Origin: Phycisphaerae bacterium
GTDB lineage: Bacteria > Planctomycetota > Phycisphaerae > UBA1845
Direction: 5' to 3'
Assembly (NCBI GenBank): GCA_029260215.1
Contig: JAJDDQ010000039.1
Location: forward strand, 48,313-112,312
DNA: 64,000 nucleotides
Part shown: piece by piece, positions 39,298 through 44,217 of the stretch
Layout of the letters: each line of letters opens with the position of its first letter
Position numbering within the stretch: position 1 is the first letter of the stretch
Program-made: the position numbers and the translations under genes
Notes under the pieces: model-generated
Seen by the model: only the letters and a program-made list of their open reading frames with translations
Databases searched by the model: none
Told to the model about the DNA's origin: nothing

Positions 39298-42200
39298 ATG
39301 CTGTTATTACCAAGATCGTTGAGCACGTTTGCTGTTGCACTGGCTGTTTGCGCGTCCATCGCGGCTGCTCGCGAGCCGGAGAAATTCGTCGCATTGAGTC
39401 AGTCGGCCAACAATATGCTGGGGCTTCGGGCCAGCCGAGTTGTGGAGCTGGACGTGGCTGCGAATCCTGGTCAGTCGTTCTCGCTTTCGGTTCCGCTGGA
39501 CGGTCGTCAGGTCACGCTCGACCTGGCTCCTCACTCCGTACGCTCGGCGGATCATTATCGCGTGATGGTTCAACAGGCCGACGGCAAACTCGTCGAGGCT
39601 AAGACGGGGCCTGTGCGGACATTGCGCGGCACGGTGCAGGGTCAGCCGGGCAGTGTCGTCGCGGGATCGTTGCTGAAAGACGGCTTGTACGCACTGGTTC
39701 AACTCACGCCCGACGCTGAGTATTGGATCGAACCGCTCTTCCGACGGGTCGATGGAGCGTCGCGCCGGCACTATGTCTTGTACCGCAAAACCGACGTTCT
39801 GCCGGGAGGACATTCCTGCGCCACGGAAGCGAGACAAGCAGCCGTCGGTATTCCGCAACAACCGCAGGAGCTTGGCGGTTGCGGGGGCGGCGGTGTGTGT
39901 GTGGCTGAGCTGGCGTGCGACGCCGATGTGGAATACTTCAACACCTACGGCACGGTTCCGGCCACCGAGGCGCGGATCAACGCCGTGATCAACACGGTCA
40001 ACCTGCAATACGAAAGTCAGGTCGGCATCACGCATCAGATCACGACCATCATCGTGCGCACTGCCAATCCCGACCCTTACACCTCGACGGATGCTGAAAC
40101 ACGTCTATGCGAGTTCATCACTGAGTGGACCAATAACCAAAGCGGCGTGCAGCGCGACATGGCTCAATTGTTCACTGGAGCAGTCATAGACGGGACCACC
40201 ATCGGAATCGCCGCGGACATTGGCGGCTCGGGCGTGTGTGTAACCAGTGGAGCTTGTACCGGCGGACCTTTCGGACCGCTGGGTTCATATTGTATGTCGC
40301 AGTCTGATTTCAACGGCAACTTCAGTTGCGCGACCGATTTGAGCACCCACGAGATGGGCCATCTCTGGGGGGCGTTCCACTGTTCCTGTCCCAGCAACAC
40401 GATGAACGCCAGCATTACCTGTACGAACACGTTCACTGCCGGCTCGATTTCATCGATCGTGTCCTATCGCGATACGCGTACCTGCCTGACCAGCGGCGCC
40501 GGCTGCACCAAGGATTGCCTGCCGGGACACATACCGGAGGCTGAACCGATTTGCGGTACGAACTACGACGACGTCACCAACGGCGGCTGCAATTCCACAG
40601 TGCCGATATGGTCGCCCATCGGACTGAGCGCGGTCGTTTGCGGGGAGTCCGGCACGTATCTACGCGATATTTCCTGTGTCGACGATACGCCATGTACACC
40701 GTTCGGACAGACGTGCAACACGGGCACCGGCATCTGCAACGGCGGTCCGTTCGGCAGCCGAGACACAGACTGGTGGCAGTTTACGCTGACCGAAGCCCAC
40801 GAAGTCAACCTGTGCGTAACGGGGGAGTTCCCTGTATTGGTGGGTATTGTTGACGATGGCGGCGGTGCCGACTGCGCGGGTGCCGCCTTCCTAAGCTCCA
40901 ATTCAGGATTCGGATGTGTGGAGGTATGCGCGACGGCCGACCTGACGGCCGGGACATGGACAGCGTTCGTAAGCCCGAACACATTTGACAGTGTGGCCTG
41001 CGGGTCCACGTACAATGCGGAAGTCCGCTGCGACAGTGCCAACGGAACCCCAACGACTTATCAAGCGACTGTGAACCAGGGTATTCCGGACGGAAGCCCG
41101 GGCACGCCGCTGACACATACCATCAACGTTCCCGATTCGGTAACGATCGGCGACCTCGATGTCGCATTGGTCATCACACACACGTGGGTCGGCGACCTGA
41201 CTGTGACACTGGAACATTTGGGCACGAGTGTATCGCTCATCAGTCGCCCAGGCCTGCCCGACATCGACCCCAGCTTCGGCTGCTCGGGCGACGACTACAA
41301 CATTGTGCTGGACGACGGCGGAACCGGTGGCCCGATCCAGGATCTGTGCGCTGCCACCCTGCCGCCCTCTCCGCCGAACTACAGCCCGGACAAGATACTG
41401 TCGGCCTTCGACGGCATGGACTCTGCCGGCGACTGGACCATCACCATTGCAGATTCCGCCATGCCGGACCCCGGCACGCTGGTTGAATGGTCTTTGCTCA
41501 TTGACAGCCAGGTCGCCAACCCTTGCACTCAGAACCTGTGCGCCAGCGTGGATTGTACATCGCTGGACAACGACTGTGCGGTCGGCGTTTGTGATCCTGC
41601 GAACGGGCTTTGCGTTCAGGATACAGCCAGTTTTGCCGGAGTGGAGTGTCGTGCTTCCGCAGGCCAATGCGACACGGCGGAGACTTGCGACGGCTTGAAT
41701 GCGACATGTCCGCCAGATCAGTTCGCGACCGGGCCTTGCGACGACGGCAACGCCTGCACACAGACTGACACCTGCCAAGCCGGCGTATGCACCGGAAGCA
41801 ACCCGGTGGTCTGCACACCGCTCGACCAATGCCACGTGGCGGGAACCTGTGATACGGGTACAGGTCTGTGCGATGATCCGTTCGCGGCGAATGGAACAGG
41901 CTGCAATGACAATAACGCTTGCACGCAAACTGACATATGCCAAGCGGGCATATGTACCGGAAGCAACCCGGTAACTTGCACGGCACTGGATCAATGCCAT
42001 GTAGCCGGAAATTGCGATACAGTCACGGGCCTATGCGATGATCCATTCGCGCCCAACGGAACAGGCTGTGACGACAGCGACGCCTGCACACAAACGGATA
42101 CGTGCCAAGCGGGCGTATGCGCCGGAAGCAACCCGGTGATCTGCACACCACTTAACCAATGTCACGTGGCCGGAACTTGCGATACCGTCACAGGACTGTG

Positions 42201-44217: not shown

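Follow-up and report, generated by a model that had tools for sequence, protein, structure and literature searches.

A secreted M12B metalloprotease of a Phycisphaerae bacterium carries a recurrent C-terminal module with a predicted cohesin fold

Introduction

A cellulosome-like complex for the degradation of peptides, the hypothetical 'planctosome', has been proposed for the Nemodlikiaceae (Phycisphaerae) (Andrei et al. 2019, ISME J; PMC6461901). The complex would comprise three proteins, with M12B Reprolysin_4-like and M14 peptidases docking on an adaptor and with P-domains on the anchoring protein; it is based on cohesins and dockerins that are detectable with dbCAN/InterPro (0-1 and 0-6, respectively, in five tabulated metagenome-assembled genomes), and, according to the supplement, reprolysin, P-domains and TSP3 repeats are often found together (PMC6461901). 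The planctosome is the closest precedent found for the gene analyzed here, which lies at positions 39298-44217 (+ strand) of a 64,000-nucleotide (nt) stretch of DNA, hereafter the window, from a Phycisphaerae bacterium (assembly GCA_029260215.1, contig JAJDDQ010000039.1, positions 48,313 to 112,312). The gene is genuine and conserved and encodes a zinc protease that is large and secreted, and the protein ends in a module that we found on many other proteins.

The two systems belong to the same class of bacteria and have in common an M12B peptidase, P-domains, Cys- or TSP-type repeats and cohesin/dockerin-type parts, combined in what would be a surface-tethered degradation of extracellular proteins, and both are known from sequence only (PMC6461901). 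All of these domain types are found here in a single protein, whose homologs are named Phycisphaerae or Planctomycetota. Whereas the planctosome has cohesins and dockerins that are detectable with hidden Markov models (HMMs) and lie on separate proteins (PMC6461901), the halves of the module are invisible to HMMs and are fused on the cargo. Each genome has ~50 proteins with the module, and many of the passengers are not peptidases. Our literature search returned no description of such a fused, HMM-invisible module or of its expansion, the planctosome being the sole precedent found.

The module can also be compared with the clostridial cellulosome (the CipA cohesins and Doc48S of C. thermocellum; the CaCohA2-CaDoc0917 pair of C. 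acetobutylicum, 6kgf), whose cohesins are closest to its beta-sandwich (template modelling (TM) score 0.6-0.76) and whose dockerins it resembles in having a tandem duplication of loop and helix and in sitting on many enzymes of one genome. It differs from these proteins in its sequence (7-17% identity, with no HMM detection), in a loop-helix segment that is braced by cysteines and lacks conservation at Ca2+-loop positions 1 and 3, and in having no link to polysaccharide degradation; furthermore, the cellulosome divides cohesin and dockerin between scaffoldin and enzyme, whereas the module fuses both, in a fixed order, on the cargo. The C-terminal domains (CTDs) of the type IX secretion system (T9SS) of Bacteroidota offer a likeness of working rather than of ancestry, being strictly C-terminal beta-sandwiches on dozens of secreted proteins per genome. 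The module has no sequence or HMM similarity to them, is about three times larger, and belongs to another fold family and another phylum. T9SS is not known in the phylum of the module.

A C-terminal module shared by many secreted proteins

The initial annotation of the window had read the end of the protease as two dockerin-like segments followed by a domain weakly resembling cohesins, and had missed that this pair is one conserved C-terminal module common to hundreds of proteins. Two homologs (P0003 and P0004) share both the head of the protease and its last ~300 amino acids (aa), and a profile of the tail (A1) retrieved at least 133 further proteins, nearly all of them without Pfam annotation in this region and several encoded on one contig. 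We mapped two sub-profiles onto the matches, 'dl' for the Cys-rich lead-in plus the loop-helix pair and 'bd' for the beta domain. The order was always dl followed by bd, and the module occupied the C-terminal end in ~120 proteins, with a remaining tail of mostly <=15 aa. The window protein itself matches the dl profile with E 1e-44 and the bd profile with E 2e-79. When 1.84 billion cluster representatives were scanned exhaustively with HMMER, the family counted 979 members at E<=1e-3, 714 at E<=1e-10 and 352 at E<=1e-30, and in the best 150 matches listed the module match ends no more than ~30 residues from the C-terminus.

Scanning one genome per GTDB species gave 140 confirmed module sites. 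The best 80 of these 140 all fell in two genomes, Phycisphaerae bacterium OFTM285 and Planctomycetota bacterium LOGT_bin.0161, in which we counted at least 47 and at least 55 distinct module-bearing open reading frames (ORFs), respectively; the counts cover the fetched loci and are hence lower bounds. Among loci L002-L076, module-bearing genes often stand in tandem, two to three in a row (e.g., L038, L054, L068, L070 and L075), and at L039 two modules apparently share a single frame. The window holds one member, the protease. Two other proteins (P0083 and P0192) share the peculiar insertion in its lead-in, indicating that there are further members in the sub-lineage of the protease.

The passengers of the module include FG-GAP, Endonuclease I, CHRD, galactose-oxidase-like, beta-helix, lamin-tail, FGE-sulfatase, PMP-repeat and Kelch domains, as well as a full disintegrin domain (E 5e-23) and an MtrC-like multihaem cytochrome. 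The strict C-terminal position, the 714 clusters and the ~50 copies per genome on such diverse extracellular passengers lead us to propose, with moderate confidence, that the module (~300-320 aa) is a Pfam-invisible, lineage-specific tag for display or assembly.

Predicted structure of the module

With 56 homologs as input, AlphaFold2 modelled aa 1290-1639 at a predicted local distance difference test score (pLDDT) of 86 and a predicted TM score (pTM) of 0.83, with pLDDT values of ~97 in the beta domain and 90-96 in the two helices. When the model was compared with the PDB using Foldseek, type I, II and III cohesins made up nearly all of the top ~49 matches (E 3e-8 to 1e-5, probability 1.00, target-normalized TM 0.5-0.76), among them 6kgf_A (E 3.2e-8) and 5m2s_A (TM 0.76). 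Other structural matches were the CLIPPER adhesin domain 9ifr (TM 0.70) and the F-spondin reelin-N domain. A cohesin fold of the C-terminal beta domain is strongly supported by this model.

In the first half of the module, the two loop-helix segments are identical to one another at 18/27 residues; the whole family shares this duplication, and the cysteines that brace the duplicated segment are invariant. At positions 1, 3, 5, 9 and 12 of the EF-hand, the window protein has N-E-D-N-D in one loop and D-N-D-N-D in the other. Modelled alone, the dl part had a mean pLDDT of 67.5 (helices 74-91) and gave five Foldseek matches, two of which were dockerins: Doc48S (2mte; TM 0.61, root-mean-square deviation (rmsd) 3.1 A, E 4.2) and the double dockerin 8x39_B (rmsd 2.3 A, E 9.9). 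A sequence search of the PDB with the whole module returned only chance DC-SIGN matches (E>0.5), and a PDB profile search with the dl part returned no dockerin, with glutaredoxin and gp120 at E>0.3. Taken with the tandem duplication, the two dockerin matches are no more than suggestive of a dockerin-like segment.

These comparisons also bear on the possibility that the protease is freely secreted and that the module is a substrate- or matrix-binding domain targeting many enzymes to one particulate substrate. We regard this as quite improbable, given that the closest structural matches are cohesins and not carbohydrate-binding modules and that the conserved duplicated loop-helix would be left without a role, even though the cohesin-type fold is common to other families (such as 9ifr and reelin-N), the passengers are mostly enzymes or adhesin-like repeats, and a membrane anchor is absent.

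The linker between the halves of the module is constant, with 8-12 residues including Cys and Pro. Together with the high pTM and the lower confidence of the helices in the absence of the beta domain, this suggests that the two halves form one rigid unit, packed in cis. The window protein ends in a short basic tail, …TEAIRR (44185-44214), and in most members of the family 5-20 Arg/Lys-rich residues follow the last beta strand, the last residue being R in 34/60. A module that is placed at the extreme C-terminus of all mapped members, on ~50 diverse cargo proteins per genome, with a beta-sandwich core, halves apparently packed as a single unit and a basic tail after the last strand, could instead be a secretion or sorting signal like the type IX CTDs, recognized by an outer-membrane machine for export or attachment and possibly cleaved, with no cohesin-dockerin assembly involved. 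Such a signal, of ~300 aa, would be about threefold longer than known C-terminal sorting domains and would have protein-binding cohesins as its closest structural relatives; moreover, no T9SS CTD or other sorting-signal HMM (Pfam, including PF18962, and NCBIfam) matched the module and no cognate machinery was identified beside the genes, so that a sorting signal appears possible, if on the unlikely side.

The protease head

The head that the tag for display or assembly would carry in the window protein is an ordinary member of the Planctomycetota M12B family: ~45 Planctomycetota/Phycisphaerae 'M12 family metallo-peptidases' share only its first ~400 aa, and their C-terminal halves all differ. 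In Pfam searches with the whole protein, the catalytic domain matched Reprolysin_3 (E 3.9e-13, 50.4 bits, cutoff 22.4), Reprolysin_5 (E 7.5e-13, 49.6 bits, cutoff 27) and Reprolysin_4 (E 6.9e-9, 36.1 bits, cutoff 22), in keeping with the secreted reprolysin-type metzincin of the initial annotation, of which the quoted motif strings and the 1,639-aa ORF are likewise all in place. Residues H351, E352, H355, G358, H361, C362 and M369 are conserved in 42 homologs. The protein thus shares with the M12B adamalysins (BaP1, ADAM17 and the Planctomycetota M12 peptidases) the zinc site, the downstream Met and the Reprolysin_3/4/5 matches, in addition to a prodomain Cys and a disintegrin-type motif. The features of the gene are collected in Table 1.

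Table 1. Features of the protease gene and inverted-repeat elements of the window. Nucleotide positions count from the first letter of the window.
Feature	Residues (aa)	Position (nt)	Strand	Basis or remark
MITE-like element (miniature inverted-repeat transposable element), 190 bp, copy A		39010..39199	.	Terminal inverted repeats of ~27-28 nt, flanked by TA, in the intergenic region 5' of the protease gene
Signal peptide	1-25	39298..39372	+	MLLLPRSLSTFAVALAVCASIAAA followed by R, predicted cleavage after AAA; read from sequence
Pro-region	26-201	39373..39900	+	Cys174 in LPxGxSCA (nt 39817-39819), candidate cysteine switch
M12B (reprolysin/adamalysin-like) zinc metalloprotease domain	202-393	39901..40476	+	Pfam
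Zinc motif HEMGHLWGAFH	351-361	40348-40380	+	Fits HExxHxxGxxH
Met369 (NTMN)	369	40396-40410	+	Conserved after the zinc site; putative Met-turn
Cys-rich region and beta-rich domain	396-590	40483..41067	+	Contains DTDWWQFTL; no family
Proprotein-convertase-type P-domain	~598-735	41089..41502	+	PF01483
Disintegrin-like Cys-rich motif	741-807	41518..41718	+	ECRASAGQCDTAETCDGLNATCPPD at aa 783-807
Cys-rich repeat array: 8 full 55-aa, 8-Cys repeats and a degenerate ninth	811-1279	41728..43134	+	Tandem Repeats Finder
Short Cys-rich connector	1280-1317	43135..43248	+	Read from sequence; no family match
Module, first half (dl)	1318-1466	43249..43695	+	Cys-rich lead-in DDACLWWSC, lineage-specific insertion, dockerin-like part
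Two tandem loop-helix segments	1393-1419, 1431-1457	43474-43554, 43588-43668	+	D(M/A)GGPFxxCxPDGFCNxxDxNHALxCF
Module, second half (bd), predicted cohesin-fold beta-sandwich	1474-1638	43717..44211	+	AlphaFold2, Foldseek
Second element copy		58022-~58255	.	Shares termini with copy A (3 mismatches in 27), interior unrelated

The signal peptide contains the sole 19-aa Kyte-Doolittle window above 1.6 in the whole protein; no hydrophobic window was found beyond it, and hence no transmembrane segment or membrane anchor. A lipoprotein signal was considered and rejected, since the LAVC/LSVC box has Val at -1 and is unconserved in P0003 and P0004. The pro-region had no match in Pfam or NCBIfam, and its aa 73-167 weakly resemble the ADAM17 propeptide (PDB 9o54/8snm, E 0.016/0.14). 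Cys174, at the end of the pro-region, is invariant in the 42 homologs, in a motif that is not of the PxxCGV type. Downstream of the catalytic domain, aa 396-590 gave no Pfam match and aa 396-741 no PDB sequence match; aa 396-590 are collinear and conserved in a more distant ortholog (P0002), and P0003 has a galactose-binding-like domain (PF23759) at the equivalent position.

The P-domain was identified by PF01483 in two stretches of the isolated segment (E 1.3e-8, 35.3 bits, compared with 27.4 bits in the whole protein; cutoff 21) and was also called in P0002 (profile positions 2-85 of 86). It includes the strings GDLTVTLEHLGT (aa 632-643), GDWTITIADS (aa 711-720) and LVEWSL (aa 728-733). The assignment of this domain in the initial annotation therefore stands, but its view that a P-domain is unusual on a metzincin does not. 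The P-domain does follow an M12B domain here and not a subtilisin (S8) catalytic domain. However, precomputed annotation places a P-domain beside Reprolysin-family domains in 11 homologs, comprising two orthologs and nine others, seven of the nine also having the T9SS sorting domain PF18962, and the co-occurrence is equally noted in the supplement of the planctosome article (PMC6461901). The combination of M12B and P-domain is not exceptional in bacteria.

The disintegrin-like stretch contains the CRxxxxxCDxxExCxGxxxxCPxD motif, but its match to PF00200 (E 1e-5, 26.7 bits; profile positions 12-75 of 75) falls below the cutoff of 35.1, and the assignment of aa 741-807 is only suggestive. The eukaryotic ADAM layout that had been invoked for the protein is, in its strict form, not supported. 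A distance of ~345 aa, filled by the Cys-rich beta region and the P-domain, separates the catalytic domain from the disintegrin-like motif; ADAM_CR, EGF and transmembrane domains had no Pfam match at E<=1 in the whole protein or in any of eight segments; and the C-terminal half is, in contrast to ADAM proteins, a bacterial repeat stalk with the cohesin/dockerin-like module. The order of prodomain, metalloprotease and disintegrin-like part, along with weak PDB matches to the ADAM17 prodomain and to the snake-venom protease BaP1 (catalytic domain, E 0.003), might still recall a recent horizontal gain of a eukaryotic ADAM or snake-venom-type gene. This is highly improbable and was ruled out by the ortholog and composition data: the likeness is remote (E 0.003-0.016), the ~45 Planctomycetota/Phycisphaerae homologs are 32-63% identical in the prodomain and catalytic region, the base composition of the gene matches that of its flanks (GC 0.59-0.60), and the ADAM_CR, EGF and transmembrane parts are all absent by Pfam and hydropathy.

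The repeat array

The protein contains a total of 134 cysteines. Tandem Repeats Finder detected a 165-bp period in 8.0 copies at 41748-43059 (79% matches), the full 55-aa units spanning aa 811-1250 with a degenerate ninth behind them, which agrees with the 8.5 repeats of an 8-Cys unit counted in the initial annotation. The units are on average 81% identical in aa and 78% in nt, and 66% of the differences between them fall at codon position 3, indicating that the array is old and has been maintained. The unit matched no curated family in Pfam or NCBIfam (best DUF7107, E 0.0017, below cutoff) and no solved structure in the PDB (granulin only at E 0.16), and a homolog search with a repeat profile returned just 31 short unnamed fragments, which are uninformative on its distribution. 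The 55-aa unit is also found in P0047 (Myxococcus), P0049 and P0052, and in the Myxococcus protein it is preceded by a disintegrin-type motif too. At the position of the stalk, P0002 has a different Cys-rich repeat unit of 49 aa. Since the type and the length of the stalk vary between orthologs while the flanking domains are conserved, it would act as a spacer and not as a specific ligand binder.

A possible mode of action

Taking head, stalk and module together, we lean towards a protein that is exported by Sec as an M12B zinc endopeptidase and is fixed by its C-terminal module through contacts of the cohesin-dockerin type. The enzyme would be made as a zymogen, kept latent by the pro-region with Cys174 as the cysteine switch, and would be activated after export. 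The P-domain may stabilize the catalytic head, and the Cys-rich repeats would form a stiff, disulfide-rich stalk. By means of the module, the protease and the rest of the tagged exoproteins would be tethered either to one another or to a receptor on the cell surface, and the outcome would be a cell-associated layer of extracellular enzymes that digests proteinaceous particles.

Several observations weigh against this mode of action. With Pfam, Cohesin matched 0/57 family members at E<=1 and Dockerin_1 matched 1/57 (E 0.072). When the domain assignments of the initial annotation are checked with HMMs, as it had itself proposed, that of the P-domain is supported whereas those of dockerin and cohesin fail at the sequence level; the cohesin-like domain is rescued by its predicted structure, while the dockerin-like segments keep their tandem loop-helix duplication but have dockerin fold matches (E 4.2 and 9.9) that are not statistically significant. 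Family-wide, positions 5, 9 and 12 of the EF-hand-like loop are conserved and positions 1 and 3 are not. The apparent packing of the two halves in cis might occupy the surface that contacts in trans would need. No recurrent cognate receptor or scaffold for the module was identified at the module loci, and the clustering of ORFs around 75 of these loci gave no convincing recurrent partner or machinery gene, the neighbor clusters consisting of antisense shadow ORFs, Ser/Thr kinases and other large secreted proteins. Finally, at the active site, the adamalysin family consensus has an Asp directly after the third zinc His (HExxHxxGxxHD), whereas the window protein has Cys362 at this position; this residue is kept in the Planctomycetota homologs and is a deviation at the level of the subfamily.

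The beta-domain profile also detected, with E 1e-4 to 1e-7, a second and divergent type of cohesin-like domain. This domain lies internally in two M12B peptidases (P0003 aa ~760-894, with a second copy, and P0004 aa ~1081-1207), right after the signal peptide in module-bearing proteins of ~500 aa (P0081 aa 35-216, and P0122, P0125, P0134, P0164 and P0178), and in a 1,113-aa protein that is free of the module (L075:11849-15202). Proteins with this second domain type are possible candidates for receptors or scaffolds of the dockerin-like segments.

In a more far-reaching version, the ~50 exoproteins of a cell, each with a dockerin-like and a cohesin-fold half, would self-assemble into a scaffoldin-free extracellular enzyme mesh, being linked head to tail or onto proteins with the second cohesin-like domain type. 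Heterogeneous in composition and with its dockerin-like halves braced by disulfides, this mesh would be the equivalent of a cellulosome for proteins and other polymers. It would amount to a surface-assembly system specific to planctomycetes of the Phycisphaerae type that has not been described before. We consider it unlikely in this form.

Integrity and conservation of the gene

The frame on the + strand is uninterrupted over 39199..44217 and would encode 1,672 aa if read from the first ATG. We prefer the start at 39298, which yields the 1,639-aa product, since GGGGAG lies 7-8 nt upstream of it, the signal peptide and thus the sole hydrophobic stretch of the protein begins there, and the ortholog P0001 is likewise 1,639 aa long. 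The longer start at 39199 was rejected: it has neither a signal peptide nor a ribosome-binding site, and its ATG overlaps the end of an inverted repeat.

P0001, encoded in an independent assembly (GCA_024278775.1), is 96% identical to the window protein across all 1,639 residues and has an equal number of repeats. At its locus (L001), as in the window, a GAF/HD-GYP response regulator gene lies upstream and a quinolinate phosphoribosyltransferase gene downstream. The two genes differ in 5.2% of bases (94.8% identical) with zero indels, and the codon differences, 172 synonymous compared with 65 non-synonymous, are found in every domain, indicating that the whole frame is under purifying selection. 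The more distant ortholog P0002 (1,818 aa), on a 398-kb contig, is 49% identical with an equal domain order; by BLASTP its collinearity with the window protein begins at the signal peptide and reaches the repeat array, and its C-terminus bears the same module.

Since the domains are an unusual mixture and long tandem repeats such as the internal one are notorious for mis-assembly, one might suspect that the frame of 1,639 aa is chimeric, or that the gene is decaying, with unrelated pieces fused. This is barely conceivable in view of an independent assembly with the same protein, repeat number and neighborhood, the domain order kept by P0002 at 49% identity, an undisrupted frame with synonymous changes far exceeding non-synonymous ones in each domain, and repeat units that are 22% apart at the nucleotide level. 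The comparison of the orthologs rules out a chimera; assembly from separate genes, which the initial annotation had raised as a concern, is not seen in these homologs, which show one intact gene.

Long antisense ORFs (<=365 aa), such as 40903-42000 (-), inside the protease gene are shadow frames of a GC-rich coding region. Antisense frames of a like kind grouped together in the clustering of the neighborhood ORFs.

Upstream element and gene neighborhood

The initial annotation had reported an element with perfect 12-bp inverted repeats ~100 nt upstream of the gene. The arms of this element (copy A; 39010-39037 and 39172-39199) are 28 nt long and 79% complementary, their outer 12 nt are indeed perfect (TAACAGGTCAGC), and the element ends 99 nt before the ATG. 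The 12-mer of the arms occurs three times in the window, compared with 0.13 expected occurrences. Copy A and the second element (Table 1) both have ~27-nt terminal inverted repeats, TAACAGGTCAGCCnTnTGCAATGnCA, and TA flanks, with unrelated interiors that are rich in short GC hairpins; judged by these features, the upstream element looks like a MITE. The syntenic locus L001 retains the element, within an intergenic region that is 97% identical to that of the window. In the interior of copy A, at 39091-39115, the 12-bp sequence GTCCGCGCGGAC is perfectly palindromic and overlaps a further hairpin, CCGCGGAC-TGAA-GTCCGCGG. A sigma-70-like match is present between the element and the ATG, but the promoter/terminator scan was not above the shuffled expectation.

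The upstream neighbor of the protease gene (37218-38831, +) encodes a response regulator of 537 aa, whose domains are of the receiver, GAF and HD-GYP (HD/HD_5) types, and is syntenic in L001. Between the flavin-reductase and response-regulator genes (window 36610-37218; L001 4632-7922), the related strain has ~2.7 kb of extra DNA, with two minus-strand genes, one for a 300-aa protein of unknown type and one for a 456-aa protein with weak HD/HD_assoc matches, which are absent from the window. This ~2.7-kb difference is a strain-level indel beside the locus.

Implications

Little is known of how planctomycetes, and the Phycisphaerae especially, display their many extracellular enzymes. The sole proposal that we found in the literature, the planctosome, rests on a handful of HMM-detectable cohesins and dockerins (PMC6461901). 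The protease of the window led to a far larger family that domain databases miss, with 714 clusters at E<=1e-10 and ~50 members per genome, whose passengers are proteases, nucleases, oxidases, adhesin-like repeats and a multihaem cytochrome. The tail of the protease represents a new version of the cohesin-dockerin theme that has undergone great expansion.

Should the module serve for attachment or self-assembly, the biology of cohesins and dockerins would extend well past cellulosomes. The module would then provide a testable handle on the cell-surface organization of an abundant aquatic lineage and a new disulfide-stabilized protein-protein connector for engineering, and it would become possible to predict from sequence which proteins these uncultured bacteria secrete or carry on their surface.

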